Below, in pieces: positions 9,150 through 54,790 of a stretch of DNA of 64,000 nt (the stretch's first letter is position 1; every line of letters begins with the position of its first letter). The stretch covers positions 2,675 through 66,674 of the forward strand of contig JAZSBR010000017.1 of assembly GCA_045602545.1 (NCBI GenBank). The letters run 5' to 3'. The stretch is from Alphaproteobacteria bacterium (GTDB lineage: Bacteria > Pseudomonadota > Alphaproteobacteria > RF32 > CAG-239). A program made the translations under genes and the position numbers. The notes below the pieces were generated by a model. The model was not told where the DNA came from. It ran no database searches and saw only the letters and a program-made list of their open reading frames with translations.

Positions 9150-9365
9150 AAAAACTTTAAGACCGCTATAATAGCGGTCGGAAGCTGAAAACTATTAAAA
9201 GACAAATAGTGCGTTTTATTAAAATCTCAAGGATTTCTATTCACACGCCTTCCGACCAATATAGTCAGAAGTATTTGTATAAAAAAATGTCTTTTACGAG
9301 GTTTTCAGGCCTCCGAGCCTTTTATGCTCATCTTTTATATTAGCTGAAAAAAATTATTTTGTAAA
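9150..9365 (-). promoter_or_regulatory. family promoter + structured leader RNA + terminator, copy 1
   Basis: -35 TTTACA (9360-9365), 17 nt, -10 TAATAT (9337-9342). RNA starts near 9329 with GAGCAUAAAAGGCUCGGAGG. Terminator gaccgctat/atagcggtc at 9161-9179. Confidence 0.75.
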
Positions 9366-9433
9366 GCAAAAAAATAAGAACCAAGGCGGACGCAAACTTA
9401 AATTTTCGGCTTCTTAAATAAAATTTAAGGGCT

Positions 9434-17204: not shown

Positions 17205-19247
17205 TCACTTTTTGAATGTCAATATAACAAAGTTGTTATCATCATTCAATAAAGGCGCCGCCTCGGCGGGAGTATATTGAATGCGGTTGCAAAATCCACC
17301 CATATCCTTATAGCCGGCACCGCAACCATTGGCAGAACTTATGCAAACTCCGTCTTTGCCTAAATAGCCATCTCCGCAACCCTTGGATTCACTAACACAA
17401 AGATTATCTTTTAAGTAGAAGCCTACATCACAGCCTTCGCCGTCTTCTCTGGCAACACATTCATCTCCGACTTGTTTTTCCCCATAACCGCAACCAAGAT
17501 CTGCAGGGAAACAGGAAGGATAACCTTTGTTATTGGTTCCAATTAAATACCCATCATCACATTCGGAAACACATTTTCCTTGTTGTACATAAAAACCTTT
17601 TTGACATCTGTAACATTCACCATAATTATTCAATAAACAATTTTTTGGCACACACATTCCTTTTTCATAGACAATTTTTTTTGTTTCACCTTCTTCACAT
17701 TCCTCAACACACTTACCTTCCCTCATGTAGGTATTATTTTTACAACCAAAACAAACACCATATGATGCATTACAATTTTTTGGGCGACACATCGAGTTAC
17801 CTATGTCGTCATCATATCCTTCAGGACATGGTTGATCAGAAGGAATACATTCATAACCTGTATTCTTATACCCTTTTTCACATCTTTGACAAACCGTATC
17901 TTGTCCATATAACGTATTCATTCTATAGCAATGCTCTATTTCAATTGGTTGACAGGTACCATTATCATTAGGAGCATAACCATCTTTGCATTCTATGCAA
18001 CGATTACCATTATTTGCACAATGAGCACAATTATCATCATCACAAACAAAACAATTTCCTGAACCACTTCCACCATATCCCTCTTGGCAATTTTCGCATC
18101 TGGCATAATTACTATAGCAAGTCAGACATCCATCGATGGCACATTTGATACACTCTCCATTTTCATTTTTTCCATAACCGGTTTGACAAGATGAACAAAT
18201 ATTTACGTCTGATGTACAATTCGAACAGTTTTCAATAGCACAAGCCTGACAAGAACCATTAACTAATCTAAAACCTGTCTTACAGGTACGACAGGATGTG
18301 TAATTAGATCCACCGCAATCTGAACAATTAGAGTCGGCACAAGCTATGCATTCTTTATTCCCTTCAGAATTTTTTATTCCTAAACCTGTTTTACATTGTG
18401 TGCATGATTTATAATTTGCAGTGCAAAAATTACACCCATCAATAGCACATTTAACACACTCTCCATTTTCATTTTTTCCATATCCAGGGTACTGACATTG
18501 ATTACATATCCGATAATTTGTATTACAATCACTACAATTTTTATTAGAACATTTTTTACAATTATTATTTTCATCTAATCCATAGCCCTCAACACATTTT
18601 GCACATTTACCATTTATTCCACAACTTGTACAATTATCCTGACATTTATCTCTATCTAATTCCAATGAACATTCTCCGTTAATTAAAATATACCCACTCG
18701 TACAGCCTGTACATTTACCTGTTGTTGCATTATACCATGAGCAACCTTCAGGATTTTGTTTACAATTTCCATTTTCCACATAATACCCGCTATTACAACC
18801 CCCGCATTTGCCTTCATTCACATTGTACCATGAACAATTTTCCGGATTTTGTTTACAAACTCCATTTTCCATATAATATCCGCTGTCGCACCACGCACAA
18901 TTACCGCTAACACCGCAAGCACTGCAATTTTCCGGACAAGTATCAGAATCAGCCTCTTCCTCACATCTTCCATTAACTGTTATCATATCATCATAGCAAC
19001 CATCACATTGCTTATAATTATCTTCACAGTCTTCGCAATTTGAATCTTCACACCGCACACAAACACCATTTTCATTGTGCCCATATCCATTGTCGGCACA
19101 ATCGTCACAATATCCGGTTTCTTGGTCACACGAATCTTCACTATAACACATTGAATTTCCGCCGCATAAATATTCATTATACTCCCAAGCATAACTTTGT
19201 TTGAACCCTAAAATTATCATAACTAAACTAAAAACAATCTTTTTCAT
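17205..19247 (-). CDS. secreted cysteine-rich (CXXC / furin- or VSP-like repeat) protein with family C-terminal tag
   Basis: Signal peptide MKKIVFSLVMIILGFKQSYA. Dozens of C-x2-C modules with internal duplicates (GYGKNENGEC(V/I)KCAIDGC twice). Ends ..CNRIQYTPAEAAPLLNDDNNFVILTFKK. Preceded by leader copy 2. Confidence 0.85.
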   Translation of the reverse strand: MKKIVFSLVMIILGFKQSYAWEYNEYLCGGNSMCYSEDSCDQETGYCDDCADNGYGHNENGVCVRCEDSNCEDCEDNYKQCDGCYDDMITVNGRCEEEADSDTCPENCSACGVSGNCAWCDSGYYMENGVCKQNPENCSWYNVNEGKCGGCNSGYYVENGNCKQNPEGCSWYNATTGKCTGCTSGYILINGECSLELDRDKCQDNCTSCGINGKCAKCVEGYGLDENNNCKKCSNKNCSDCNTNYRICNQCQYPGYGKNENGECVKCAIDGCNFCTANYKSCTQCKTGLGIKNSEGNKECIACADSNCSDCGGSNYTSCRTCKTGFRLVNGSCQACAIENCSNCTSDVNICSSCQTGYGKNENGECIKCAIDGCLTCYSNYARCENCQEGYGGSGSGNCFVCDDDNCAHCANNGNRCIECKDGYAPNDNGTCQPIEIEHCYRMNTLYGQDTVCQRCEKGYKNTGYECIPSDQPCPEGYDDDIGNSMCRPKNCNASYGVCFGCKNNTYMREGKCVEECEEGETKKIVYEKGMCVPKNCLLNNYGECYRCQKGFYVQQGKCVSECDDGYLIGTNNKGYPSCFPADLGCGYGEKQVGDECVAREDGEGCDVGFYLKDNLCVSESKGCGDGYLGKDGVCISSANGCGAGYKDMGGFCNRIQYTPAEAAPLLNDDNNFVILTFKK

Positions 19248-19284
19248 CTTTTACTTCCTTTTCTAAAATTATTCCCATTTGCAT

Positions 19285-19515
19285 AAAAGAAAATCGCCAC
19301 ATAAAGGGGCGACTGGAAGCTCGAAACTATTACTTGGTCAGATAGTATGATTTATTCGTAAAGCCATGCTTTCTTATCTCATCACCTTCCAGCCATACAT
19401 GTATGACTGAAAACAAACTATCCTTTTATGAAAGGACAACCAAGTAAGAGGTTTCGATACCTCCGAGCCTTTTATGCTCACTCTTTATACTAGCGGAAAA
19501 AATAAAATTTGTAAA
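19285..19515 (-). promoter_or_regulatory. family promoter + structured leader RNA + terminator, copy 2
   Basis: -35 TTTACA (19510-19515), 17 nt, -10 TAGTAT (19487-19492). RNA 5' end near 19479. Terminator agtcgcc/ggcgatt plus U-run at 19285-19313. Confidence 0.75.
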
Positions 19516-27818: not shown

Positions 27819-28014
27819 TTTACAAAACGGAAATTTTCTGCTAGCATTTTGATTGGGCATAAAAGGCTCGGAGGTCGATAAGCCTCAGGTACAGTATTAT
27901 ACTTCTGACTAATATGGTCGGAAGGTGGCAGAATAAAAACACTAGTGTTGTAATATGTCACACTATTTACTGTATCATAGTTTATCGCTTCCGACCGCTC
28001 GTTGAGCGGTTTTA
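27819..28014 (+). promoter_or_regulatory. family promoter + structured leader RNA + terminator, copy 3 (short subtype)
   Basis: -35 TTTACA (27819-27824), 17 nt, -10 TAGCAT (27842-27847). RNA from about 27855 (GGGCAUAAAAGGCUCGGAGG). Terminator ccgctc/gagcgg plus U-run at 27995-28014. Confidence 0.75.
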
Positions 28015-28048: not shown

Positions 28049-28738
28049 ATGATAAAAAATGAAAAAGGACGCTCTATGGTGGAAATGCTGGGAGTATTGG
28101 CAATAATTGGTGTTTTAAGCGTTGGTGGAATCGCCGGTTATTCAAAGGCGATGATGCAATTTAAAATCAATAAAACCATCAACCAAATTATGTACACGGC
28201 TGCGGAAATCAGAACATTATTTGCCGGACAGCCGTATTGTGATGAAAAGGGGAACAATTATTGGGACAATCAACATATATCAAGTATAACAAGTAATATT
28301 TTTAAATGCGATGATGATCGTTGGCATAATTGCTATAATGAATGGGGTGAAACGGTTTATATATATTCTGAGTGTGTAAGATCAAGATATGAACAATTTG
28401 GCTATTATAACAAATCAGAATTATTCAGAATTTATACAAATATTCCATATGAGGCTTGTGTAAAATTTTATTCAACAGATTGGGGAACACGTGCAACAAC
28501 CGGAGTTTTTGCTATTAATATGGATGATTCATGTTCAGTATATGAATTTGGTTGCGCATATCAGAGTGATTATAAAGAAATGCATGAAACAGAAGCTTCA
28601 ACTTGGGCAAAAGATGTAGCGCAAGAAATGGGTATTCCAGCGGAATATACTATTCCGATGTCTGTTGCTGATGCAGTACAATTTTGTAAACAATATGAAG
28701 GTGATGACTTTGTGGGTTTTGCCATCTTTTTTGAATAA
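28049..28738 (+). CDS. prepilin-type (class III signal) N-terminal domain protein
   Basis: MIKNEKG|RSMVEMLGVLAIIGVLSVGGIAGY: Gly, Glu at +5, and a hydrophobic helix of about 20 aa. SD GGAGG lies 7 nt before the ATG. Preceded by leader copy 3. Confidence 0.75.
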   Translation: MIKNEKGRSMVEMLGVLAIIGVLSVGGIAGYSKAMMQFKINKTINQIMYTAAEIRTLFAGQPYCDEKGNNYWDNQHISSITSNIFKCDDDRWHNCYNEWGETVYIYSECVRSRYEQFGYYNKSELFRIYTNIPYEACVKFYSTDWGTRATTGVFAINMDDSCSVYEFGCAYQSDYKEMHETEASTWAKDVAQEMGIPAEYTIPMSVADAVQFCKQYEGDDFVGFAIFFE

Positions 28739-30184: not shown

Positions 30185-31386
30185 CAGTCAACTTTCGGGG
30201 CTGAATTTTTAGGCAATAACAGATAATATTTTCCGGCGGAATTCATCCTTCCGGCAAAGTGAAGAGCGTCATCGCCGTGTCCCCAAAAATAATCACCGCG
30301 CACCGCGCCTTTGATTGCCGCACCGATGTCTTGAGCGAACATCAGTTTTTGCAACGGCTCTTTGTCAGGGCTGACCGTATCAAGCCACAAAACCGCGCCT
30401 AAAGGAATGAGAGAATTGTCAACAGCCATGCTTCTGCCGGCAGTTAAAGAAACGCCGAATGCCCCCATCGGACCGTCAGCATCGGACAAACGTTGAAAAA
30501 TAAAGCGCTCGTTTTCCTGCATCAGCTTTTTGGCTTCTTCGGGGTGCGTCCTCAGCCATTTTCTGATGTTTTCCATTGAAACTTCACCGGCTTTCAAAAG
30601 CTTCTTTTCCAGCATAATGGAGCCGATTCCCTTAAACTTGTGCCCGTTGTTGTCGGCATAACCGATTCTTAATTCCGAGCCGTCATCCATTTTGGCGATT
30701 GCCGAGCCTTGAATCTGCATAAAGTGAATATCCACCAAGTCATCAGCCCACATCAAAACCGGTGCATTAACCCCGTTATTTTCAATATCCGCACGCTTGT
30801 AATACGGCACAAATTTGCCGTTTTTCACATGTCCGACCAAACGAGTATTCGGTAAATCGGCGCCGAAATCACGCAAATTTATTTCAACCAAATCCTTAGG
30901 CTTGCCGTATATCGGATATTTGTAGCGGTCGCTTTTTTCCAAAGAGGCATGCACGGTTGCCTCATAATATGAGGTGAATTTGCCTATCGGGTTATTGCCG
31001 GCGGAAACAATATAAGGCGTGAATTTGTCTTCTAAAAACTTTTTCATTTTGGCGGAAGAATTTATGTTTTGCGCCGAAAAACTTTTGCACACGTTTTGAT
31101 AGTCCGCCGTTTTTATTTTGACGGCTGAATCAGCCAAATAGGCTTTTTTATTCAGCATAATTTTGGCGCAATTTTTTGCAAAAACCGGTATTGCTTTGGA
31201 AAAATCATCATTATTCCAGCCCTCAAGAACGGAAAACGAAGTTTTGCTCAACTTGAGCGGAGCCGAGATATGAGATTTTTCATCTTCATGCGAGCAGGCA
31301 AAAATAAAGCAAATAAGAGCCAGTGCCGAAAGGGTTTTAAGCGCTTTTTTTGGTTGAAACCAAAGTCCAAATATTGTTTTTTGCAT
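30184..31386 (-). CDS. mltA: membrane-bound lytic murein transglycosylase A (lipoprotein)
   Basis: Lipobox LICFIFAC after MQKTIFG.. and an MltA-type C-terminal block AQDIGAAIKGAVRGDYFWG. Start set at ATG 31386, which overlaps the upstream gene by 50 nt. Confidence 0.8.
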   Translation of the reverse strand: MQKTIFGLWFQPKKALKTLSALALICFIFACSHEDEKSHISAPLKLSKTSFSVLEGWNNDDFSKAIPVFAKNCAKIMLNKKAYLADSAVKIKTADYQNVCKSFSAQNINSSAKMKKFLEDKFTPYIVSAGNNPIGKFTSYYEATVHASLEKSDRYKYPIYGKPKDLVEINLRDFGADLPNTRLVGHVKNGKFVPYYKRADIENNGVNAPVLMWADDLVDIHFMQIQGSAIAKMDDGSELRIGYADNNGHKFKGIGSIMLEKKLLKAGEVSMENIRKWLRTHPEEAKKLMQENERFIFQRLSDADGPMGAFGVSLTAGRSMAVDNSLIPLGAVLWLDTVSPDKEPLQKLMFAQDIGAAIKGAVRGDYFWGHGDDALHFAGRMNSAGKYYLLLPKNSAPKVD

Positions 31387-32053
31387 TTTTCGGTCTTTCA
31401 AAAGTCCACATATCCGTAATTTTTTGCACGAAGTTTTCATCGCCTTCAATAACTTCGCCGTCTTTATTTTTCAAAATGCTGACCTGTTCACTGACGAACT
31501 CAACCACAACTTTTATGGTGTTTTTAAGGTTTTTAACATCCTTAATTTCGCTTTTATCAAAGCAGATGAAATCAACTTCGGAAGTTATGTTATCAGCACG
31601 GCGATTTTCAATAACCTGATTAAAGGCATCAAAAACTTTTTTACTCATCAGCTCGCGAACGGGCGTTAAATCTCCCTGATTGAAGGCCGATAAAATAAGT
31701 TCAAAAACTTTTTTTGCGCCGTTTAAGAAGATTTCTTTATTTAATTTTTCCTGCTCCTGATTTTCTTGTTCTTTCAAAGAATCTGTTGATAAAATGCTCA
31801 AATTATTGTCTTTTGGGTCAATAATCTGCGAAATATTTTGCAAAATTTGCTTTTCCTCAGTTTTATCAACAGGTTTAAGAATAATTTTGATACCGCTTTC
31901 TTTGTTATCAGTGCCGAACACTCTGTAAAGCCTGAAAAGCACGCCCAGCGCAAGAATAAGAAGAATTATAAACTCTAATGCAGACAACTTTATCACTCCG
32001 ATTTTAATTATGAACTCCCATAAATATATAACAAATAAAAATTTTATCAACAT
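31337..32053 (-). CDS. Tim44-like domain membrane protein
   Basis: N-terminal TM, then a C-terminal Tim44-like fold pattern (..DFICFDKSEIKDV..WTFERP). Divergent from secB, as is typical in Alphaproteobacteria. Confidence 0.7.
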   Translation of the reverse strand: MLIKFLFVIYLWEFIIKIGVIKLSALEFIILLILALGVLFRLYRVFGTDNKESGIKIILKPVDKTEEKQILQNISQIIDPKDNNLSILSTDSLKEQENQEQEKLNKEIFLNGAKKVFELILSAFNQGDLTPVRELMSKKVFDAFNQVIENRRADNITSEVDFICFDKSEIKDVKNLKNTIKVVVEFVSEQVSILKNKDGEVIEGDENFVQKITDMWTFERPKNAKNNIWTLVSTKKSA

Positions 32054-33096: not shown

Positions 33097-33328
33097 TTTA
33101 CAAAGCAAAAATTTTTTGCTAACATCTTTTATAGAGCATAAAAGGCTCGGAGGTCAAGAAGCCTCTTGTAGATATAGTCCTTGCATAAAAGGATAGTTTT
33201 GTTTTCAGTCATATTCGTATGGCTGGAAGGTAGTGAAATAAGAGACCTTCTGGTTTGCGAATAAACTACACTATCTTATCTACAATAGTTTCTTGCTTCC
33301 AGTCGCCTTTTTTGGCGATTTTTCTTTT
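33097..33328 (+). promoter_or_regulatory. family promoter + structured leader RNA + terminator, copy 4
   Basis: -35 TTTACA (33097-33102), 17 nt, -10 TAACAT (33120-33125). RNA from about 33134. Terminator agtcgcc/ggcgatt plus U-run at 33301-33328. Confidence 0.75.
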
Positions 33329-33369
33329 ATGCTTAATTGGCATAATTTTTTGAAAAAAGGAAAATTAAG

Positions 33370-34152
33370 ATGAATAAAATTGTTTTATTAACAAGTGCGG
33401 CAGTAATGTGTTTTACCACAATCAGTAAATCAATAGCTGAAACCTGGGACTGCGGAGACCAAGGAAATAATGTCCAATGTACACTTGATGAGGATGGAAC
33501 TTTTACTGTTTCCGGCAGTGGTAAAATGGCGGATTATGAGTATGATACTTACGATGGGGTAGGAAATGGACCATCCTCAGGCGCGCCATGGGGAGGTAGT
33601 AGAGCGGCAATGAATAGAATCAAAAGTATAATAGTAAAAGATGGTGTAACAAAAATTGGCAAAGGATCTTTTACCGGAGCAGCAGCGCTTGTGAGTGTTT
33701 CCATGTCCGGAGTTGAAGTTGTGGGGGAACAAGCATTTCGTGATGCTTATTTATTGAAGGAAGCATATATGCCTAAGGTGGAAATAATTGAAACTGGTGG
33801 TTTTGATTGGAATAAGAGTCTTGAAAATGTGTATGCTCCAAGTGTCAGAATAATTGATTCTTTAGCATTTGAAAATGCAGTTTCGCTTAAATATATAGAA
33901 ATGGGTAATAATGTCTCTATAGGTTCTTCTGCATTTCATAATACTAAAATTCAAAACTGTGGAAATGGCGGAACCTGTATTAACTGTGGTGATAAATATG
34001 CGTTGTTAGGGAAAGGGTGTGTAAATAAATGCCCTGACAATTTTAAAATTAATGACGGTTATTGTGACCGCATTCGTTATACTCCTGCCGAAGCGGCTCA
34101 AGTTTTGCGCGATGATAATACAAACGAGGTGACAATTACGTTTAAAAAATAA
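33370..34152 (+). CDS. secreted BspA-type leucine-rich-repeat protein with family C-terminal tag
   Basis: Signal peptide. ETWDCGD..GTFTVSGSG N-terminus. LRR units (..IGKGSFTG.., ..VGEQAFRD.., ..IDSLAFEN.., ..IGSSAFHN..). Cys-rich module. Ends CDRIRYTPAEAAQVLRDDNTNEVTITFKK. Confidence 0.85.
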   Translation: MNKIVLLTSAAVMCFTTISKSIAETWDCGDQGNNVQCTLDEDGTFTVSGSGKMADYEYDTYDGVGNGPSSGAPWGGSRAAMNRIKSIIVKDGVTKIGKGSFTGAAALVSVSMSGVEVVGEQAFRDAYLLKEAYMPKVEIIETGGFDWNKSLENVYAPSVRIIDSLAFENAVSLKYIEMGNNVSIGSSAFHNTKIQNCGNGGTCINCGDKYALLGKGCVNKCPDNFKINDGYCDRIRYTPAEAAQVLRDDNTNEVTITFKK

Positions 34153-35898: not shown

Positions 35899-35985
35899 GC
35901 GCTTGTGGCGGAATCGGTAGACGCTGCAGACTTAAAATCTGTTGCCCGCAAGGGCGTGCCAGTTCAAGTCTGGCCTAGCGCACCA
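35899..35985 (+). tRNA. tRNA-Leu, anticodon UAA (class II, long variable arm), CCA encoded
   Basis: Manual fold. Acceptor GCGCUUG/CUAGCGC has one U-U mismatch. D-arm GCGG-AAUCGGUAGA-CGC. Anticodon loop CUUAAAA. Variable arm UGCCCGCAAGGGCG. T-arm GCCAG-UUCAAGU-CUGGC. Ends ACCA. Confidence 0.9.
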
Positions 35986-36024: not shown

Positions 36025-36350
36025 GCTTTTATGCGGTGAAAGTTCAAATAGCGAAACATTTAATAAAACCGGCATAAAATAAGAGTATTTTTTTATAAAA
36101 GTAAATAAAATCAAAAAGTTAAGCGTAAAACAGCTGGTCAATTTAAACCAACGTTTGTTGTCAACACTTTTTTTCATTTTTTTAATTTTTCGTCAAAAAG
36201 GATTTTAAGCCTTATAATTATTGCTTTTTAGGCATATCATTCTAACCTGACTCGTTCTGAAATTTTTCATTTTTTCATTGGTGGAAATAAACGTTCGTTT
36301 TGTTACAATTAGACAAATGACAAAATAAATTGATAGTAAAGGATACGAAA

Positions 36351-38759
36351 ATGAGTGATAATACCTTGAAAATCGAAGTAATTCCTAATGGTTTCTTATA
36401 TTTTGAGCCAATGGGTTCTGTTAGCGATGGAATGCAATTTATTGCAACGGCAAAAAGAAATTCTTCTCAAGATGCTAAAGTTGCAGATTGGTTTGAAGGA
36501 ACAAAAAAACAAGGACAATCACGTGATTTTAAATCAGTAATGCATACAGCATTAGCGGCATGTGATGCGGTCAACGGCGGGAAGGATAAATGGAAGGTAT
36601 TCAGAGCTATTGAAAATTATCAAAAATCACATAATTTGACGATTACTGTTCAACCTAAAGGTCAAAATAAGGGCAATACAGGTAATAATCAAAACAGCGG
36701 AAGACGTGATAGTCTTGTGGCTTTAAGCAAATTACCTCAAGGTGAGATTGTTGGAAAATTCCAAACAAAATTTGGTATCCAAAAAAGTGATTGGGAACAA
36801 AAAGTTACTCCTGTTGGTGGATCTTCAATAATTTCAGTAATATTGAAATATAAAGGTAAACAATATTCTGGAAAAGGAAGTGATAAACGTGCAGCACAGC
36901 AATCTGCTATTCTTGATTTTTTAGAAAAAGAATATGGTATTACAACAAAATCTGAAAGAGAAGCACAAAAAGCTGAAGCTGAAAGACGTGCGGCACAAGA
37001 AAGACAAGAGGAATTACTAGATGAGACAAAATATTTAAGAGTTTTAAGCGAGCGTTCAGATGTCGAAGTAAAACCTACATCTTGGATTAACCCACAAAGA
37101 CCAGCCAAAGGCTCTCGTATTCCGGCAAATAGTTTTCTTATTGATACACCTTATGGTAAACAAAAATTAACAGATAGTGATATTTCATTAACGATGATTA
37201 AAGGCGTAAAAGTTTCTGAAGAAGAACGTGAAGCATATAATCAAAGAATAGAAGATGATAAAAAATCATTAATAGATGAGATTGAACAAAGAATTGCACA
37301 TGAAAAAGAAATTGAGCGATTAGAAATTGAAATGAAAGAAAAGGAGTCACGAGAAAAGTTAGCTAGAGAAGAAAGGAGACAAGAAAATGGAGGTTTGAAT
37401 GCTAAATTAGAAAATGCTGTTAAATCTGATAATTTGGAAGAGGTCAAATCTTTGATTAAAGAAGGAGCTCAAATTTCAAATGCATGGGATAAAAAAGAAG
37501 ATTTTGAAAATACATTATTAATAGCTTTAGATGCTGTACCTATTAATCAAGATATGGTAAATTATTTGATAGATCATGGTGCTAAAACAGAATTTGAAAC
37601 CTATGATTACGATGGGGAATTATCATCTACACAATCGTTGCTTTGTTCACGTATAGAAGATTTAGATGTAGATGCTGTTAGAGCCTTGGTTGTAGGTGGT
37701 GCTGATATTTGGTTTGAGTCACAAGGATATAGTGGAGGTACTAGTATTGATAATGCAATTGCAGAAATTGAAGAGCGTTATGACGATGAATATTACTATG
37801 GATATAAAGAAACCCAAGAAATCATGCAAATAATAAAAGATGCACGGGAAGGAAATCTTGAAATTCATAAAAAAGAAAATGTTGCTGAAACAGACGCCAA
37901 AGACAATGCAATTATAGAAAATAGTGTGTCGGTGATGACTGATGCTTCTAACGAGCAACAAGTTCAGAAATCATCAACAATTGAATTCGTCGGAGCGATG
38001 GACAATCCACACTTTATGGAGCGGCATTTCAATAAGGAATCTTTAACAATAGGCTCAAAACCATTACCATTAGCACCGGAAGAAAAAATGGTAGCTGCTA
38101 TGACAGAACTTGACGCACATGCCCAAGAAATCATGCGCACACAAGAAGAGCCAAATAAAATTTATTTAGCGATGGAATTTGATCAGCATATGTCCACCAA
38201 TCCTATTGCACCGAAGGATTGCGTTGAACAAGGTAAAATATTCTCGGTTATTCGTGATGCTGGAACACCATATGAAAAAGAAGTTCAAATTGCATTGATT
38301 TCGAAAGAAGACATGCCTAAAACCAATGTGGTTCATGCAATTTACGGACCATATGATGAAAAACAGTTTGGTAATTATACAGCATTTTTCGGGGCTATGA
38401 GCGAAGCATTTCCTCGCGAATTACCGGAAAATGCAACGCCGGAGCAAATTGCTCAGAACGAGAAGAATAAAGAGTATTGGGATAAACATATTTTCTTGGC
38501 TACACCGGAAGAAGTCGGCAAGATTGTTAAAGATTTGCAACAAGCAGCTCAAAATCCTGAACTAAGTGCAGAAAAGAAGCAACAATTCACAACGGTAGCT
38601 TCTGCAGCAAATATGCGTATTAATCTTTTTAAGAATATGGGGAAAAAATCACCACTAACGGCTGCTACATATCAAGCAAATATCGAGCCATATGAGATAA
38701 AAGTACCTCAGCCGAAAGGTAATGGTAATACTAGAGGCGGAAAAGGTATAGGTGAATAA
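36351..38759 (+). CDS. large multidomain protein: dsRBD-like segment, E/K coiled coil, ankyrin repeats, unknown C-terminal domain
   Basis: ATG 36351 follows AAGGA (the track's TTG 36330 is less likely). ..ILKYKGKQYSGKGSDKRAAQQSAILDFLEKE resembles the dsRBD C-terminal signature. ANK-like LENAVKSDNLEEVKSLIKEGAQ.., MVNYLIDHGAKT.., VRALVVGGADI. Confidence 0.7.
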   Translation: MSDNTLKIEVIPNGFLYFEPMGSVSDGMQFIATAKRNSSQDAKVADWFEGTKKQGQSRDFKSVMHTALAACDAVNGGKDKWKVFRAIENYQKSHNLTITVQPKGQNKGNTGNNQNSGRRDSLVALSKLPQGEIVGKFQTKFGIQKSDWEQKVTPVGGSSIISVILKYKGKQYSGKGSDKRAAQQSAILDFLEKEYGITTKSEREAQKAEAERRAAQERQEELLDETKYLRVLSERSDVEVKPTSWINPQRPAKGSRIPANSFLIDTPYGKQKLTDSDISLTMIKGVKVSEEEREAYNQRIEDDKKSLIDEIEQRIAHEKEIERLEIEMKEKESREKLAREERRQENGGLNAKLENAVKSDNLEEVKSLIKEGAQISNAWDKKEDFENTLLIALDAVPINQDMVNYLIDHGAKTEFETYDYDGELSSTQSLLCSRIEDLDVDAVRALVVGGADIWFESQGYSGGTSIDNAIAEIEERYDDEYYYGYKETQEIMQIIKDAREGNLEIHKKENVAETDAKDNAIIENSVSVMTDASNEQQVQKSSTIEFVGAMDNPHFMERHFNKESLTIGSKPLPLAPEEKMVAAMTELDAHAQEIMRTQEEPNKIYLAMEFDQHMSTNPIAPKDCVEQGKIFSVIRDAGTPYEKEVQIALISKEDMPKTNVVHAIYGPYDEKQFGNYTAFFGAMSEAFPRELPENATPEQIAQNEKNKEYWDKHIFLATPEEVGKIVKDLQQAAQNPELSAEKKQQFTTVASAANMRINLFKNMGKKSPLTAATYQANIEPYEIKVPQPKGNGNTRGGKGIGE

Positions 38760-38780: not shown

Positions 38781-40130
38781 ATGAGTAATGAAGATATTTT
38801 AGCAAAAGTCCGTCATAAAGTGGCTGGTGACAGGTTATTGGTTGTTGCTGATAACTTTGATGCAGAGCATCCGCTTGATACTGTTGTTAAGACAACTTCC
38901 GGCAAAACAGCTTATGGATATATTCCAGAAGAAATTGCTGATAAAACAGGCGGAAAACCGGCTCCGGTTATTGTTACCGAAGAGTTGTTCGACCATTTAG
39001 ATGTTAAAGGTACGCGTATTCAAACCGTTGCTCAGCGTGGTTTTGATGATATACGTGATGCTGTGGAATATGCTTTGCAAAAACCTGAGGCTGTGGCTTT
39101 AGGCGGTGGTGATGGTTCTTTTAATATCTTCTTTAAAAAAGAAGGTTTTGAAAAAGGTTTAATGTATGCAAATTTGATGTATTCAAACGAGCCGACACCG
39201 GCTTATATTGTTCGCTCAATTTCTCCAACAGGTAAGGTTAAAGGTGATTTATTATTTGAAGGTGATTCTGTCCCGTCAATGTCTATTCCGTCAGGGTTTA
39301 ATGACAAAGAGTTTGAAGAAAAAATTAAATCGTCATCAGGGGATCGTGTTTCCGGTAAAACTTGGAATAAAGGCAATGTAATGAAAGCTTTGCGTATGCA
39401 TGCGCAAGAAGGAAAATACCCGACAACAGAAGAATTTGCCGAAATTAAGCAATGGGTGGCTGATGGTAAAACTGACCATTTGACATCAGGCAGTGTGGGA
39501 ATGTATATTAAACAAGCATTAGAGCAGAAAAACAGTGCAATGTTCTTTAAAGCCGGTCAAGAGGCAGATGTCTGGGGAAAAGTTTCTCCAGCTATTAAGT
39601 ATGTTACAAGTCAACAATTTTTAGAAACAATGGAACGTGCTGATAATGCTTCTGTTGACATTAAATCAGCAATTATATTAGCAGGAATGGCTGTTGCGGC
39701 ACCGGAAGATAAACGTGCAGAAGAAGTTAAAAAATGCAGTGTTACCTTCAATTTAGGCGGAAAAGATTTAGCTACGGCACTGGTACAAAGTGAAAAAGGT
39801 TTATTGGAATTTGATTTGAGCAATGCCGAAAAAGCCTATAAGACAGTGGAAAGCATCATGGGTAGTAAGTTTGAAAATGAACAAATGTTGTCTGACGTGT
39901 TGAAAGTATGTAAGCTTAAACATCCGGATTTTGAAGTTGGTCAAGTTGGAAAATATTGTCATCTTGTTGCAGATGCCGTCAAGACAGCTCGATCAGGTGT
40001 TGATATAAAATCTATGTCTCCGGAAGAAAAGAAGGCATATTTCAGCAACAAAGCAGCGTTTGATATTGCTGCGGTTAAATCAGCCTTTACTGCAGAAATG
40101 ACCAAAGATAATTTTATCGGACCAAGATAG
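38781..40130 (+). CDS. hypothetical protein (449 aa), probably co-transcribed with the preceding gene
   Basis: SD AGGAG lies 6 nt before the ATG, 21 nt after the upstream stop. Same CpG-poor composition as the preceding gene. No family recognised. Confidence 0.65.
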   Translation: MSNEDILAKVRHKVAGDRLLVVADNFDAEHPLDTVVKTTSGKTAYGYIPEEIADKTGGKPAPVIVTEELFDHLDVKGTRIQTVAQRGFDDIRDAVEYALQKPEAVALGGGDGSFNIFFKKEGFEKGLMYANLMYSNEPTPAYIVRSISPTGKVKGDLLFEGDSVPSMSIPSGFNDKEFEEKIKSSSGDRVSGKTWNKGNVMKALRMHAQEGKYPTTEEFAEIKQWVADGKTDHLTSGSVGMYIKQALEQKNSAMFFKAGQEADVWGKVSPAIKYVTSQQFLETMERADNASVDIKSAIILAGMAVAAPEDKRAEEVKKCSVTFNLGGKDLATALVQSEKGLLEFDLSNAEKAYKTVESIMGSKFENEQMLSDVLKVCKLKHPDFEVGQVGKYCHLVADAVKTARSGVDIKSMSPEEKKAYFSNKAAFDIAAVKSAFTAEMTKDNFIGPR

Positions 40131-43933: not shown

Positions 43934-45085
43934 TTATTTTTTGAAAGTAATCGTTACTGAATTATTATTATCATCGGTCAGAACTTCAGCCGCTTCGGCA
44001 GGGGTGTAACGTAAGCGGTCGCATTCACCGTCATTGAGCTTAAAATTTTCGTTTTTGCATTTTGTGCAACCCGAGGCGCCCATTTTTGTGCAACCGTCGG
44101 GATAGGCAAGTAATTTTCCGGATAAAAGATCGTTTAAATGGTCTTTACAATCGCTTATCCAAGACGGATAGCGCTCTTCCAATTTTTTCCCAGCCTTATC
44201 ACAATCAACATTACTGAACAATTCTTCGCATTTTTCGGCTCCGCAATAAACCTTGGCATCTGCCCCTAAAGCTAAGTTACGAAGAAACCAGCCTTCAATT
44301 GAAGTTATGCTCGGTGGAAGTATGAGTGTTCCGTTAAACCCTGTCGAAAGGTTAGCCCAAGGACCATCTCCTAATGTGGTTTGTCCGTCATTAACAATAA
44401 CCGTTCCGGTCACAATAGCTTGGTCAAATGAATTAGAATCTGTCTTATTAACCTTTAGAACCCCATCCTTACCGTGTATATTTGCTCCGAAAATATAAAA
44501 AGCGTGCTGTCCTATTGAGCTAAACTCTCCATCAATTTCAACATCGCTAACAGTTGGGAAATTTCCGCTTTCGTAATATCGAGGTGAAAACATTCCCTTT
44601 GAAACAACGGCATCAGGCTTGGTCGCGGTTACGGTCAACTTGCCATTATTATAGTTATAAGTGCAACCCTCGCCGCAATTATTGGGAACTCCGGGATTCC
44701 ATTCATGGCAGGTATCAATCCAATTTTTTTCGGTCGCCATACATTCTGCCCGTGATTCGGTGATAGTGATGAGGGTTAAAACAATGGCAAGCACCGGAAT
44801 CGTCATTATGAGGAGCATTCTTTGAATGCGACGTGATAATTTCATAAAACAAGTGACGCTTGCAAATAAGTATTCTTTATTTGCATGAGTACCTTGCTCA
44901 GGGAGATAACCACGTCGGACTGAAGTCCTCCTCGTTATGACGCCCTCTATTTCAAGCGCTTCGCCACATTCACTGCCGATTGTCGCCGTCCCGCCGACGA
45001 GGTTTTTATACAAAAACCTCTTGGAATATTTATTGCATTCTTCGCCTGATTTAAGCATTTGAACACTATTAAAATTCTTCCTCAT
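43934..45085 (-). CDS. secreted/anchored LRR-like protein with family C-terminal tag and an 80-aa pre-signal extension
   Basis: The ATG at 45085 sits at the same position after the leader and SD (AAGGAAGTAAAAGATG) as in copy 2. An alternative start at 44845 (MKLSRRIQRMLLIMTIPVLAIV..) gives a classical signal peptide. Ends CDRLRYTPAEAAEVLTDDNNNSVTITFKK. Confidence 0.75.
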   Translation of the reverse strand: MRKNFNSVQMLKSGEECNKYSKRFLYKNLVGGTATIGSECGEALEIEGVITRRTSVRRGYLPEQGTHANKEYLFASVTCFMKLSRRIQRMLLIMTIPVLAIVLTLITITESRAECMATEKNWIDTCHEWNPGVPNNCGEGCTYNYNNGKLTVTATKPDAVVSKGMFSPRYYESGNFPTVSDVEIDGEFSSIGQHAFYIFGANIHGKDGVLKVNKTDSNSFDQAIVTGTVIVNDGQTTLGDGPWANLSTGFNGTLILPPSITSIEGWFLRNLALGADAKVYCGAEKCEELFSNVDCDKAGKKLEERYPSWISDCKDHLNDLLSGKLLAYPDGCTKMGASGCTKCKNENFKLNDGECDRLRYTPAEAAEVLTDDNNNSVTITFKK

Positions 45086-45123
45086 CTTTTACTTCCTTTT
45101 CTAAAAAAAATACCACTCAGCAT

Positions 45124-45354
45124 AAAAGAAAATCGCCTCATAAAGGGCGACTGGAAGTTGCGAACTATTGTACATCAGATAGTGTGATTTATTCGCAAAG
45201 CTAAAGCTTTCTTATTTCATCACCTTCCAGCCATATAAATATGACTGAAAATAAAACTATCCCTATTTATAAGGACAAATGTACAAGAGGTACGCACACC
45301 TCCGAGCCTTTTATGCTCTAGAGGTATGCTAACAGAAAAAATTTAAAAAGTCAA
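45124..45354 (-). promoter_or_regulatory. family promoter + structured leader RNA + terminator, copy 5
   Basis: -35 TTGACT (45349-45354), 17 nt, -10 TAGCAT (45326-45331). RNA 5' end near 45318. Terminator agtcgcc/ggcgatt plus U-run at 45124-45150. Confidence 0.75.
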
Positions 45355-49525: not shown

Positions 49526-50272
49526 TTATTTCTTGAATGTAATAGTTACCTCATTCGTATTATCATCACGCAATACCTTAGCCGCATCCGCCGGAGTCCA
49601 ATGTACATGGTTACAGAAATTTTCAAACTGACGATATCCGGCACCGCAACCTAAAGATGCATCTATACATTTTCCCTCTTTTCCTAAATATCCAACTCCG
49701 CAATCTTTCACGCACCCCAATCCGCTTTTAACATAATCATTACAAATACCACATGACGTATGTTTATTAGAACAAGAAGGAATTTTAGTACCATCAAAAA
49801 CATGACTTCCGACCATGGCATTATCCTTAAATTGTGCAAATTCAAGATTTGTTGAGCCAGCAAATACTGAGGCTGCAATTACTGCGTTTGGTATAGATAT
49901 GCTCTTTAATTTTCCGGCAGATTGGAAAGCCCAATTACCGAGAGATTCAACGCTGTCTGGGATATAAATACTTTCTAAGTTTTGTAAATTTTTGAATGCT
50001 CCTGCTCCGACTCTGGTAACTCCTTCACTAATTATAATTTTTTTTATTTGATCTGTTTTATCTTCCCAAGGACGCTCAACCTCTAAACCTGTATCATTGT
50101 TCGTGTAATAATCTTTTATATTTCCTGTTCCGGATACAATCAAGGTGCCATCGTTTTGAAGTGTGCAAATAACACTACTCTTTTCATCGCCACAGTCCCA
50201 CATTTCCGCTTTTAAATTACCGATAAATGCTATATTTATCGCTACGCTTGTTAATAAAAACAGTTTTTTCAT
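49526..50272 (-). CDS. secreted BspA-type LRR protein with family C-terminal tag
   Basis: Signal peptide. EMWDCGD..GTLIVSGTG. LRR units (VGAGAFKN, LGNWAFQS..). Ends CNHVHWTPADAAKVLRDDNTNEVTITFKK. Preceded by leader copy 6. Confidence 0.85.
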   Translation of the reverse strand: MKKLFLLTSVAINIAFIGNLKAEMWDCGDEKSSVICTLQNDGTLIVSGTGNIKDYYTNNDTGLEVERPWEDKTDQIKKIIISEGVTRVGAGAFKNLQNLESIYIPDSVESLGNWAFQSAGKLKSISIPNAVIAASVFAGSTNLEFAQFKDNAMVGSHVFDGTKIPSCSNKHTSCGICNDYVKSGLGCVKDCGVGYLGKEGKCIDASLGCGAGYRQFENFCNHVHWTPADAAKVLRDDNTNEVTITFKK

Positions 50273-50310
50273 ATTTATTTCCTTTCCTTAAAAATTATTT
50301 TCATTTAGCA

Positions 50311-50540
50311 TAAAAGAAAAATCGCCCCAAAAAGGCGACTGGAAGTTAGTAACTATTATGTATTAGATAGTGTGATTTATTCGTAAAGGTTACCCCTTCT
50401 TATTTCATCACCTTCCAGTCATACGCATATGACTGAAAACGAAACTATCCCATCAAAAGGATTAATACATACGAGGTTACTACACCTCCGAGCCTTTTAT
50501 GCTCAATTTTTATGCTAGCAGAAAAAAATTGCTTTGTAAA
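50311..50540 (-). promoter_or_regulatory. family promoter + structured leader RNA + terminator, copy 6
   Basis: -35 TTTACA (50535-50540), 17 nt, -10 TAGCAT (50512-50517). RNA 5' end near 50504. Terminator agtcgcc/ggcgat plus U-run at 50311-50338. Confidence 0.75.
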
Positions 50541-50732: not shown

Positions 50733-51656
50733 TTACTTTCTGAAAGTAATTGTCACTTCATTGCTGTTATCATCAAACAAAACTTCGGCGGCTTCAGCAG
50801 GTGTCCAGCGAATGCGATTGCACCAATTTTCAATCCTTTTATAATTGTCACCGCAACCGGTCGCGGCGGCAATACATTCACCGTCTTTTTCCAAATATCC
50901 GCTTTTGCAAGTCTGGCAATGTATATCATCGCGCATTTCTTCGCAATTTGCCGTAACGGTGCGGCATTTTCCGCTCTTTTTATCACCATATTGACCAATC
51001 GGACATGTTTCAGCACAAGTTCCGGCTAAGGTCAGATATTTGCCTTTTTCGCATGTCTGATCTTGATTGCCGATACATAAACCATTTGTCAAACTTCCGG
51101 CAGTACAATTGTTGCAAGCAAAACCTTCTCCGGATATACTGCATCTATTGCATCCGGCAATTAAATTACTGCATGTATAACATGTGCCATCCTTTTTTAT
51201 CTGGTTTTGTCCTCGGCAATCAATACATTGGCTTTTATCTGCGTTCCAGCCGGCGTAATCAGCGCATACGAGTGTAGTGCGCCCCTCATCATCAACATTA
51301 CATCCTGCCGTATGCTGAGATGACGGACAAGTATAGCATGTCCCGTTTTTAATTTTTTGATTTATGCCTCGGCAATCAATACATTTGCTTTTATCCGCGT
51401 TCCAGCCGGCGTAACCGGCGCATACGAGTGTAGTGTGCCCCTCATCATCAACATTACATCCTGCTACATGGTTTAGTGTTGGTGTTGAACAAGTATAGCA
51501 TATACCATTTTTTAATCTTTGATTTATACTGCGACAATCGATACACACTCCGTTTTCATTCAATCCATAAGGAGAAAAGCAAGCAGCAAAAGAATTATTC
51601 AAAGAAAACATAAATATTGCTATGGTCGATATTACTAGCAAAAATATTTTTTTCAT
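50733..51656 (-). CDS. secreted cysteine-rich repeat protein with family C-terminal tag
   Basis: Start at MKKIFLLVISTIAIFMF.. (51656), after AAGGAAAAAG. Three tandem units of about 52 aa (CIDCRxxNQxxKxGxCYTC...GCN...). Ends CNRIRWTPAEAAEVLFDDNSNEVTITFRK. Preceded by leader copy 7. Confidence 0.85.
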   Translation of the reverse strand: MKKIFLLVISTIAIFMFSLNNSFAACFSPYGLNENGVCIDCRSINQRLKNGICYTCSTPTLNHVAGCNVDDEGHTTLVCAGYAGWNADKSKCIDCRGINQKIKNGTCYTCPSSQHTAGCNVDDEGRTTLVCADYAGWNADKSQCIDCRGQNQIKKDGTCYTCSNLIAGCNRCSISGEGFACNNCTAGSLTNGLCIGNQDQTCEKGKYLTLAGTCAETCPIGQYGDKKSGKCRTVTANCEEMRDDIHCQTCKSGYLEKDGECIAAATGCGDNYKRIENWCNRIRWTPAEAAEVLFDDNSNEVTITFRK

Positions 51657-51699
51657 TTTCTTTTTCCTTTCTTTTTTATAAATTAAACCACGCATAAAA

Positions 51700-51911
51700 A
51701 CCAAAAACCTCCGAAACGGAGGCCGGAAGAGACAAACTATTTCGTATGATATAGTGTAACATATTCGAACTTGACAATTCTTATTCTGTTACCTTCCAGC
51801 CGAAAAGGATGGAAATATTGCTATTTTTAGCTTTCATACGAATGAGGTTTGTCTACCTCCGAGCCTTTTATGCTCAATTTTTATGCTAGCAGAAAAAAAT
51901 AGCTTTGTAAA
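51700..51911 (-). promoter_or_regulatory. family promoter + structured leader RNA + terminator, copy 7 (internally most divergent)
   Basis: -35 TTTACA (51906-51911), 17 nt, -10 TAGCAT (51883-51888). RNA 5' end near 51875. Terminator cctccg/cggagg plus U-run at 51701-51724. Confidence 0.75.
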
Positions 51912-54253: not shown

Positions 54254-54790
54254 ATGAACAAGTTGATAGTTTTGCTTTTTGCCGTGGTGCTTTGCTCATC
54301 TGCAAACGCGCAGGATTTTGATTTGAGCGACATAATGCAGGGAGGTTTTTCCGGCGTATCAAGTGCCGAATATGATGAGGCCTTTAATGAACTTGACAGC
54401 AATAAAAACGGTTATTTAAGCGAAAATGAGTTATTGAAGTTTCAGCAAAATGGCTTGGGGCAGGCTGAAGATTTAACCTATAAGGTTTTTGACGCTGATG
54501 AAGACGGAAATGTGAGCAAAGATGAGTATTTGGCTTTTTTCAAAAAACAACCGGCACAAAATGTTTCCGAAGCCGATTTGGCGCGAATTTTTGAAGATAT
54601 GGATGCTGATAAAGACGGCAATTTATCGCCTGAAGAGCTTAAAGAATATCGCCTTAAACATCTGGAAGCGCAGAATCGTGAAATTTTTAAGCTGATGGAT
54701 TTTAATCACGACCGAAAATTAACCAAAGAAGAATTCGGCAGTTTTATGGCATTTACAAAAAGCATTTTGGGAAATATACAAGGTTTTTAA
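54254..54790 (+). CDS. secreted EF-hand calcium-binding protein
   Basis: Signal peptide. Four EF loops: DSNKNGYLSENE, DADEDGNVSKDE, DADKDGNLSPEE, DFNHDRKLTKEE. Confidence 0.8.
   Translation: MNKLIVLLFAVVLCSSANAQDFDLSDIMQGGFSGVSSAEYDEAFNELDSNKNGYLSENELLKFQQNGLGQAEDLTYKVFDADEDGNVSKDEYLAFFKKQPAQNVSEADLARIFEDMDADKDGNLSPEELKEYRLKHLEAQNREIFKLMDFNHDRKLTKEEFGSFMAFTKSILGNIQGF

Follow-up and report, generated by a model that had tools for sequence, protein, structure and literature searches.

A multi-copy structured leader RNA with the layout of a transcription attenuator upstream of secreted-protein genes in an uncultured alphaproteobacterium

We analysed a 64,000-nucleotide stretch of an uncultured alphaproteobacterial genome (here called the window; contig JAZSBR010000017.1 of assembly GCA_045602545.1, positions 2,675 to 66,674) and found seven cassettes of one layout, in each of which a promoter is followed by a conserved RNA element, a GC-rich hairpin with a U-run, and a single gene, usually for a secreted protein. 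The element, which we term the type A leader, is a genuine leader RNA with a fold on the sense strand, and it is absent from Rfam 15 and from the literature that we searched. The explanation that we favour, and to which we give about an even chance of being right, is that each copy is the 5′ leader of one surface- or secreted-protein gene and acts as a transcription attenuator that is off by default.

Seven cassettes of one layout

The window is ordinary chromosome, with 39% GC and with aspS, gyrA, leuS, a dimeric-type glyS, gltX, lgt and secB among its genes, and each cassette stands alone amid housekeeping genes. The glycyl-tRNA synthetase falls in a cluster at 90% identity in which the named entries are alphaproteobacterial MAG proteins. 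The parts come in fixed order: promoter, the invariant start G(A/G)GCAUAAAAGGCUCGGAGG about 8 nt after the −10 element, a core of 142–171 nt whose 3′ end is CUUCCNNNN, the GC hairpin with its U-run and, 25–60 nt further on, the Shine-Dalgarno (SD) sequence and the ATG. A preliminary description of the window, made from the letters alone, had listed seven loci with this layout, and seven they are: the invariant 18-mer block GCATAAAAGGCTCGGAGG has exactly seven sites in the window at up to four mismatches, and a covariance model built from the seven copies scores them at 131–183 bits, with the next-best match in the window at 18 bits. The nearly invariant 5′ end is likewise present in every copy.

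The proposed promoter, TTTACA (TTGACT in copy 5), 17 nt and TA[AG][CT]AT, was detected independently by a consensus scanner at all seven copies; five of them have the TG of an extended −10, and the 30-nt promoter pattern has no occurrence elsewhere in the window. The scanner found no usable sense promoter between terminator and ATG at the window copies, in agreement with the description; its sole match there, 9 of 12 positions at 33337–33365 (copy 4), ends 5 nt short of the ATG. The −10 region of four of the seven promoters (e.g. 50512–50540, 51883–51911 and 27819–27847) is TGCTAGCA, a perfect 8-bp palindrome that also occurs in promoters on the related contigs L027, L030 and L031 and in that of a further leader, type C, on L025; this palindrome could be an operator overlapping the −10 element.

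The terminator had been assigned to every copy. The GC hairpin is indeed found in all, and six of the seven passed a terminator scan, thus showing the generic hallmark of an intrinsic-terminator attenuator, a GC-rich hairpin and U-run between promoter and start codon; copy 1 (9161–9179) has the hairpin but a poor U-run, and fails.

A conserved fold supported by covariation

The fold was assessed on ten copies, namely the seven of the window, those on the related contigs L030 and L031, and a partial one on L026, without which there are nine full leaders. Structure columns were taken from alignments A4 and A6, the latter based on the covariance model, together with anchor-based extraction; RNAalifold and a hand-built structure were concordant.

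We describe the parts with their positions in copy 4 (33097–33332, forward strand; core 33134–33304), whose promoter at 33097–33125 reads TTTACA, 17 nt and TAACAT, with TG before the −10, and was matched by the scanner. The transcript begins with the 5′-terminal hairpin P1 (columns 1–4/12–15; 33134–33148), GAGC-AUAAAAG-GCUC, invariant in all nine full copies. P2 (columns 16–29/156–168) joins GGAGG:CUUCC to seven copy-specific pairs, P2b, with strands such as CUGAAAA/UUUUCAG, UCGAAA/UUUCGA, CGAUAA/UUAUCG, CAAGAA/UUCUUG and AGACAAA/UUUGUCU; its 5′ half (33149–33165) comprises box 1, GGAGG, the 5′ strand of P2b, and CCUC. P3 (columns 33–40/146–153) adds eight copy-specific pairs, and its 5′ strand, UUGUAGAU in copy 4 (33166–33173), is unlike in every copy; compensatory changes at seven of the eight pairs bear out the long copy-specific helix of the preliminary description. 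P4 (columns 69–78/87–96; 33202–33229) pairs a pyrimidine-rich upstream strand, UUUUCAGUC(A) in copy 4, across a loop with the box GGNNGGAAG, in copy 4 GGCUGGAAG (33221–33229). It is followed by the arm of P5 (columns 97–101/132–136) and P5a (columns 110–114/119–123) at 33230–33269, with an internal loop that contains AUA and AAUA tracts. Four window copies and L030 have an additional hairpin between P3 and P4. ACUAU, the 3′ strand of P3, AAUAGUU and the 3′ strand of P2b occupy 33270–33295; then come the 3′ element CUUCCAGUC (33296–33304) and the terminator (33301–33332; AGUCGCC-U6-GGCGAUU, the U-run and, at 33325–33332, CUUUUAUGC), again a scanner match. The GG(C/U)(U/C)GGAAGG box, the second covarying hairpin (our P5) and the ACUAUYU and AAUAGUU flanks had all been described beforehand, and all are present.

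Standard pairs occupy 95.3% of the cells of this structure, against 37–48% when partners are slid by 1–3 columns; 22 of the 45 pairs show compensatory double changes, and none of 500 shuffles reached the observed covariation score, so that the covariation proposed from the window copies persists with homologues added. The unconstrained minimum-energy structure of all nine full leaders is the covariation-supported fold, at −62 to −77 kcal/mol, in which P2 and P3 together make about 21 near-perfect base pairs. Wobbles are strongly one-sided, with 45 G·U and U·G cells to a single A·C or C·A, from which it follows that what folds is the sense RNA, transcribed in the same direction as the gene, and not a DNA palindrome.

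This asymmetry bears on the idea of a DNA-level element, either an invertible segment between AGCATAAAAG and CTTTTATGCT or a miniature mobile repeat like Correia and ERIC. Such an element would account for a multi-copy intergenic repeat and for the 9–11 bp inverted repeat that brackets the leader in seven copies, and type A leaders do resemble Correia, ERIC and REP/BIME sequences in being multi-copy, intergenic, and furnished with inverted repeats that fold when transcribed. They differ in their fixed orientation and start-codon distance (all ten copies point the same way, 25–60 nt before SD and ATG), in their hypervariable arms, which change in every copy as recombinase or transposase sites do not, and in their strand-specific wobbles, a 45:1 bias not being expected of a DNA repeat. 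The inverted repeat is moreover missing from two copies. We find a DNA-level element scarcely credible, and on orientation, missing repeats and wobble bias we rejected the invertible switch and the mobile repeat alike.

The preliminary description had also drawn a GGAGG-N7-CCUC hairpin. The GAGG:CCUC complementarity exists, but the hairpin is not part of the final structure, where in every copy the N7 segment pairs over long range with the bases 5′ of CUUCC, with compensatory changes. Chain-growth folding predicts the local GAGG:CCUC hairpin from about nt 31 to nt 132–163 of the growing chain, after which P2 displaces it; it is most plausibly an intermediate of folding, with a loop on which the incoming 3′ strand would land. 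Together with three isolated bases, AUA and AAUA in the internal loop of P5 are the main invariant bases to which no fold gives a partner, and they are our best guess for a site of contact with an effector.

The box, its two partners and the terminator

The box GGNNGGAAG is complementary both to the upstream mimic of P4 (the 5′ element) and to the downstream CUUCCNNNN (the 3′ element), which overlaps the base of the terminator. Its sequence occurs in three variants, with which both partners and the base of the terminator vary. Copies 1 and 3 have box GGUCGGAAG, 5′ element CUUCUGACU and 3′ element CUUCCGACC; copies 2, 4, 5 and L030 have GGCUGGAAG, UUUUCAGUC and CUUCCAGUC; copy 6 combines the box GACUGGAAG with UUUUCAGUC and CUUCCAGUC; and copies 7 and L031 combine GGCUGGAAG with the 5′ element UUUCCAUCC and with CUUCCGGCC (copy 7) or CUUCCAGUC. 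The last four bases of the 3′ element form the base of the terminator stem, and the 3′ strand of the terminator is altered to match. Copy 4 illustrates the overlap: within its CUUCCAGUC, CUUCC pairs with box 1 (P2a), AGUC forms the terminator base, and the whole 9-mer complements the box as a candidate antiterminator, the P4 hairpin being the candidate anti-antiterminator.

The alternative fold thus consists of box:3′ element, GAGG:CCUC and ACUAU:AUAGU, and 100% of its cells pair, against 27–53% when slid; the complementarity of box and CUUCCNNNN that had been pointed out earlier holds in every cell, with two compensatory pairs. This helix, of 9 bp, overlaps 3–4 base pairs of the terminator. 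As isolated duplexes, box:3′ element is stronger than 5′ element:box by 3.9–7.6 kcal/mol in all nine full copies, and so constant a weakening of the 5′ decoy is sensible only if the 5′ and 3′ elements compete for the box. Invariance follows the same division: 76% of the columns with two alternative partners are invariant (mean identity 0.94), as against 24–34% of those with one or none. The boxes are frozen beside hypervariable helices because their columns have two alternative partners, while P2b and P3, present in one fold only, can drift provided that their strands remain complementary. From these sequence relationships the layout appears to be that of an anti-antiterminator, an antiterminator and a terminator, with an extra clamp at the 5′ end.

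A further pairing, P0, connects the two ends of the leader. Nucleotides 2–11 (AGCAUAAAAG) pair with (U)CUUUUAUGC(U) directly after the terminator hairpin in seven of the nine full copies (not in copies 1 and 3), forming 8–10 Watson-Crick pairs that 0–28 of 1000 shuffles match; copy 4 has 10 pairs, matched by 1 of 1000. The minimum-energy folds of the leaders show P0 as well. Both P0 strands are invariant and thus offer no covariation test. P0 would close the whole leader into one domain and, because its AUGC lies past the likely release point, would be fully formed only in read-through transcripts.

A proposed default-off attenuator

In the mechanism that we propose, transcription would start about 8 nt after the −10 element, and the nascent RNA would first form P1, the local GAGG:CCUC hairpin, P4, with the box held by its upstream mimic, and P5. 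As the 3′ half emerges, the copy-specific strands would zip up P3 and then P2b; CUUCC would then oust CCUC from GGAGG, the last four bases of CUUCCNNNN would join the GC hairpin, and RNA polymerase would terminate at the U-run. In the read-through fold, the box would quit its weaker partner for the 9 bp with CUUCCNNNN, stripping 3–4 bp from the terminator, while GGAGG would go back to CCUC and ACUAU would pair with AUAGU. An outside effector would have to promote this much less stable fold; the likeliest is an RNA-binding protein with its target in the invariant 5′ 32 nt, in the P4–P5 region, or in both. The copies, the terminator fold with its covariation, the strand specificity and the complementarities of the alternative fold are shown; the switching itself we infer, including that termination takes place, that the alternative fold is adopted in the cell, what the signal is and in which direction it acts.

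Several observations weigh against such a switch. The alternative fold covaries at only two of its 18 pairs, the remaining 16 never varying, and those two probably reflect one evolutionary event plus the wobble changes of copy 7. Forcing the antiterminator costs 9–21 kcal/mol relative to the terminator fold, and no minimum-energy fold of the growing chain contains the antiterminator. Nor does it arise, even before the 3′ strand of the terminator exists, when the 5′ 32 nt, GGAGG alone, the 5′ element or the variable strands are masked singly, except that copy 7 flips, as copy 6 does in the nascent chain; five of the nine leaders flip when the 5′ 32 nt and the 5′ element are both masked. The hairpin of copy 1 is without a proper U-run, and in seven copies the U-run doubles as a P0 strand, so that its conservation is no proof of termination. 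Finally, the 64-kb window encodes no RNA-binding regulator, NusG paralogue or second-messenger enzyme: beyond housekeeping genes, Pfam and NCBIfam scans of approximately 45 of its open reading frames (ORFs) gave only two LysR-type proteins and one HTH_3 protein, and neither an RNA-binding antiterminator in general nor a CAT/PRD or ANTAR protein in particular.

By these nearest-neighbour energies a self-contained switch is not what the sequence predicts. The antiterminator is so much the worse fold that default termination is predicted, and read-through would need an active outside effector. The earlier reading of the element as a dedicated cis-regulatory RNA therefore stands as regards a structured sense 5′ leader with an intrinsic-terminator-like hairpin, and is not borne out as regards a switch that works by itself.

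The same energies could be taken to mean that there is no switching at all, and that the leader is a constitutive structured 5′ untranslated region (UTR). As a fixed domain, held shut by P0 in seven copies, it could lower transcription by way of a leaky terminator and/or determine how stable the mRNA is or how it is processed; a base-paired 5′ end and the approximately 21-bp P2/P3 duplex as a site for RNase III would be in keeping with this. In its favour are a terminator fold that is the minimum-energy one at every chain length and that no single perturbation flips, the joining of the 5′ end to the U-run and AUGC by P0 in seven of nine copies, and the fact that the domain scans of the window ORFs found no effector. 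A constitutive UTR leaves unexplained, however, why the box and CUUCCNNNN keep full complementarity through three variants, why the upstream partner is always the weaker one, and why an unrelated leader type (below) has the same three-box layout. We consider it unlikely; it and the small-molecule riboswitch discussed below are the main rivals.

The promoter, terminator and stable fold that each copy possesses would also suit stand-alone small RNA (sRNA) genes, whose terminated transcripts of about 190 nt act in trans while the downstream genes are expressed from elsewhere. Against this, all ten copies share one orientation, an SD and ATG follow at 25–60 nt, no usable promoter intervenes, and the copy-specific segments are buried in helices and have no second match in the window; we think such sRNA genes very unlikely. 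It is just as improbable, in our estimate, that P2b and P3, whose roughly 15 bp differ in every copy and also between relatives, are addresses, each clamp being opened singly by a matching trans-acting RNA from another part of the genome. Within the window, a search at up to four mismatches matched the copy-specific strands (21–22 nt) to nothing but themselves, which speaks against a gene-specific trans RNA encoded there. If addresses they were, the result would be selective or mutually exclusive expression of individual surface-protein genes, despite their common promoter, and thus RNA-addressed antigenic variation.

Comparison with known RNA families and attenuators

The preliminary description had matched the element to no described RNA family, and Rfam 15 provides none: across the whole window only a tRNA passes its gathering threshold, and copy 4 at E ≤ 10 gives four chance-level matches to snoRNA and CRISPR families, at 13–20 bits where the thresholds are 38–88. 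The snoRNA matches, of the C/D-box kind, are weak ones that arise because the 5′ strand of P5 reads GUGAUGA (33230–33240 and equivalents), which is C-box-like; a kink-turn or C/D box was rejected, as the GA required in the 3′ strand is missing in copies 1, 3 and L031. A literature search found no paper containing the invariant block, and there is no match in the first 200 of the 408 supplementary files of Fremin & Bhatt 2021 (PMC8040213).

In its logic the type A leader is closest to classical attenuators. The pyr/PyrR leaders of Bacillus subtilis and the S-box (SAM-I) leaders have three mutually exclusive helices in the order proposed here, an upstream hairpin that sequesters the 5′ strand of the antiterminator, and an antiterminator that shares bases with the terminator stem. 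The type A leader has no sequence or Rfam similarity to them, adds a 5′ clamp (GGAGG and some 15 copy-specific bp) that competes for the 3′ strand of the antiterminator, and is predicted to have the terminator state as its default. The trp and his attenuators set 1:2 plus 3:4 (terminator) against 2:3 (antiterminator), and the corresponding segments here would be 5′ element:box plus 3′ element:terminator strand against box:3′ element. Unlike them, type A has no conserved leader ORF, nor any start codon conserved after GGAGG, so that ribosome stalling cannot be the sensor; a leader peptide was rejected, as the nine leaders conserve neither start codon nor frame after this SD-like sequence.

The BglG/SacY RAT and the ANTAR systems offer a likeness in energetics, since there too the antiterminator is weaker than the terminator and a bound factor is needed, as is predicted for type A. 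Reading of the type A sequences revealed neither a RAT-like motif nor a two-hexaloop ANTAR motif, and type A is much larger. T-boxes resemble it in size (about 200 nt), in their multiple copies, conserved boxes and copy-specific segments, and in the choice between terminator and antiterminator that is predicted for it. The copy-specific segments of type A, however, pair with each other and not as a specifier loop would; its genes are not related to aminoacyl-tRNA; and there is no match to RF00230.

The nearest functional parallel is the placing of cyclic di-GMP (c-di-GMP) riboswitches of classes I and II before pilin, adhesin and flagellar genes; in Clostridioides difficile, two such unrelated classes stand before pilin and adhesin genes. 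As in that case, type A leaders are multi-copy, terminator-bearing and placed before surface-protein genes, with more than one unrelated RNA class per gene set. This parallel gives some substance to the idea that type A is a small-molecule riboswitch, in which a metabolite or second messenger, bound at the multi-helix junction or at the three-way junction that the alternative fold has, would decide between terminator and antiterminator; c-di-GMP would suit pilin and adhesin genes as the ligand. The complex fold, the handful of invariant bases that no fold pairs (AUA and AAUA of the P5 internal loop), the multiple copies per genome before surface-protein genes and the terminator-type expression platform all agree with it, and the C. 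difficile classes set an example of one gene set served by several kinds of leader. On the other side, the roughly 21 near-perfect bp of P2 and P3 fold without a ligand and are too stable to need one, most of the conserved 'unpaired' bases are explained by alternative pairing and not by a binding pocket, and the three leader types found on the same gene family (below) would require three aptamers. No riboswitch in Rfam matches even at E ≤ 10, including c-di-GMP-I and -II (RF01051, RF01786). On balance we think a riboswitch unlikely, if slightly less so than the constitutive UTR.

Related contigs and further leader types

Relatives were found through homologues of the downstream proteins in ENA assemblies, on contigs from animal-gut metagenomes, one of them labelled pig gut. 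Three carry further type A copies: L030 (5526–5692, 172 bits), L031 (997–1146, 127 bits) and L026 (1–70, truncated at the 5′ end, 41 bits). Each precedes a member of the downstream protein family and has the same invariant blocks, with P2b and P3 that are new yet complementary. An exact scan with the invariant 18-mer gave 8 matches in 185,579 GTDB representative genomes, 10 in JGI metagenomes and none in IMG/VR viral contigs; these matches we attribute to chance because they are single, lie in unrelated phyla and score at most 27 bits by the covariance model.

The preliminary description placed the leader before every member of one secreted-protein family. This is true within the window, but some relatives have no such leader and others have a different one. 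Contigs L009–L014, which came from a protein search with a profile of the C-terminal tail (see below), have tail-family genes without a type A leader. On L009 (~9221–10306) there is a tail-family gene which one in-frame stop (...GEVVS*CEEGY...) divides into two gene calls; it has neither a type A nor a type B leader, with only about 145 nt upstream, and the stop marks a pseudogene, a sequencing error or read-through.

A second leader, type B, of about 250 nt, precedes homologous genes encoding leucine-rich repeat (LRR) and tail proteins on L025 (9733–9983), L027 (547–796), L028 (3986–4239) and L029 (662–913). Its copies share GAAUGAUG..AACCUUCGGGUUCGGGGCUGU..CGGGGAG..CUAAAGGCUAUAAUAGUCAU..AACUCCCCG and a terminator, behind a promoter of the same kind as that of type A. 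It has no similarity to type A by the covariance model, and no Rfam match. The fold is nonetheless built alike: a 5′ hairpin; a G-rich box 1 that closes on a C-rich 3′ element abutting the terminator; a distinct long-range helix of 9–11 bp in three of the four leaders; and a box 2 that is held in a local hairpin with a mimic of the 3′ element, box 2 and the 3′ element forming 7–10 bp that run into the terminator stem. The type B leader of L027 precedes gene 813–2048, whose protein is 73% identical to the product of 43934–45085, the gene behind type A copy 5, so that the leader types are interchangeable modules on orthologous genes; from these sequences, the modules have evidently been exchanged between lineages. 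A third type, C, is found on L025 (6535–7007, reverse strand), with a length of about 230 nt, its own terminator CCGCCCGCCCUAAAGCGGGUUUUUG, a promoter GCTTTACAAATTTTATTTTTTCTGCTAGCAT near-identical to those of the window, and no Rfam match. Three sequence-unrelated leader types thus stand before one gene family.

The copies and their downstream genes

The gene behind copy 4 (33370–34152, forward strand) encodes a protein of 260 aa with a signal peptide, a BspA-type LRR, a Cys-rich region and a conserved tail. Copy 1 (9161–9365, reverse strand; promoter 9337–9365, core 9176–9329, GC hairpin 9161–9179 with the poor U-run) belongs to subtype A2, has no P0 and precedes gene 8103–9122. Subtype A2 also includes copy 3 (27819–28011, forward strand; promoter 27819–27847, core 27855–27996, terminator 27993–28011), again without P0, which precedes gene 28049–28738. 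The other four copies are all on the reverse strand. Copy 2 (19281–19515; promoter 19487–19515, core 19311–19479, terminator ~19296–19313, P0 3′ strand 19281–19288) serves gene 17205–19247, which encodes 680 aa with Cys-rich repeats. Copy 5 (45120–45354; promoter 45326–45354 with TTGACT, core 45149–45318, terminator 45131–45152, P0 3′ strand 45120–45127) precedes gene 43934–45085, and copy 6 (50308–50540; promoter 50512–50540, core 50337–50504, terminator 50320–50340, P0 3′ strand 50308–50315) precedes gene 49526–50272, whose product has LRR plus tail. The gene behind copy 7 (51692–51911; promoter 51883–51911, core 51721–51875, terminator 51706–51724, P0 3′ strand 51692–51699) ends at 50733; it is listed as 50733–51704, and an ATG with a ribosome-binding site upstream is found at about 51656.

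Six of the seven downstream proteins have signal-peptide-like N-termini and very unlike middles, being BspA-type LRR, long Cys-rich repeats or of no recognisable domain. A single secreted-protein family, as first described, is right for the six that share the C-terminal tail (R/W)TPAEA..L.D.N.N.V.[IL]TF[KR]K-stop, and wrong for the seventh (28049–28738), which is type-IV-pilin-like and has no tail. The tail bearers of the window are 8103–9122, 17205–19247, 33370–34152, 43934–45085, 49526–50272 and 50733–51704; the tail has an extended form C.R[IL].[YW]TPAEA..L.DDN.N.VTITFKK-stop, and some relatives end in MTFKVNR. A tail profile has 39 matches, all of them unnamed metagenome proteins. The tail matches nothing in Pfam or NCBIfam, a PDB profile search gave nothing below E = 0.18, and we found no paper containing the motif in a literature search. 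AlphaFold2 on a 248-aa family member was confident for the LRR part, with the tail at pLDDT ~56 or lower from residue 210 on. The tail may be a secretion or anchoring signal. The product of 43934–45085 has, before its hydrophobic signal-like segment, an N-terminal extension of about 90 residues (MRKNFNSVQMLKSGEECNKYSK...); P0065, P0091 and P0043 have it too, in conserved form, and it calls to mind extended signal-peptide regions.

Leaders are about 75% identical to each other, while the downstream proteins share 30–35% identity or the tail alone, which indicates that the leader is under strong constraint of its own.

Other features of the window

The sole Rfam match above threshold is a tRNA gene with a long variable arm at 35899–35982 (forward strand, 54.5 bits). 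Three long ORFs have no Pfam or NCBIfam domain: 55566–61691 (reverse strand, 2041 aa), 36330–38759 (forward strand, 809 aa) and 38781–40130 (forward strand, 449 aa). Domains more typical of eukaryotes occur in an ankyrin-repeat protein (1725–3020, reverse strand), a multi-EF-hand protein (54254–54790, forward strand) and a Tim44-like protein (31337–32053, reverse strand), and these are consistent with a host-associated alphaproteobacterium.

Implications

New bacterial RNA motifs are found regularly. What distinguishes type A is its unusually clean covariation, its association with a whole surface-protein regulon, and the existence of a sister class of identical design. Its invariant boxes beside hypervariable helices are a clean natural illustration of how dual pairing freezes sequence, and RNA engineers may take an interest in a design that joins a default-off terminator to a 5′ clamp whose base pairs can evolve freely and to a decoy, itself weakened, for the antiterminator strand. 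If the switch is real, type A is an uncatalogued class of cis-regulatory RNA to which at least one other class, alike in design, is sister, and it governs a whole family of secreted proteins of the LRR, Cys-rich and pilin-like kinds in an uncultured and host-associated lineage of alphaproteobacteria of which, to our knowledge, almost nothing is known. It would then provide a handle on how these gut bacteria choose the surface proteins that they display, and would point to an effector, whether protein or ligand, that makes the choice.

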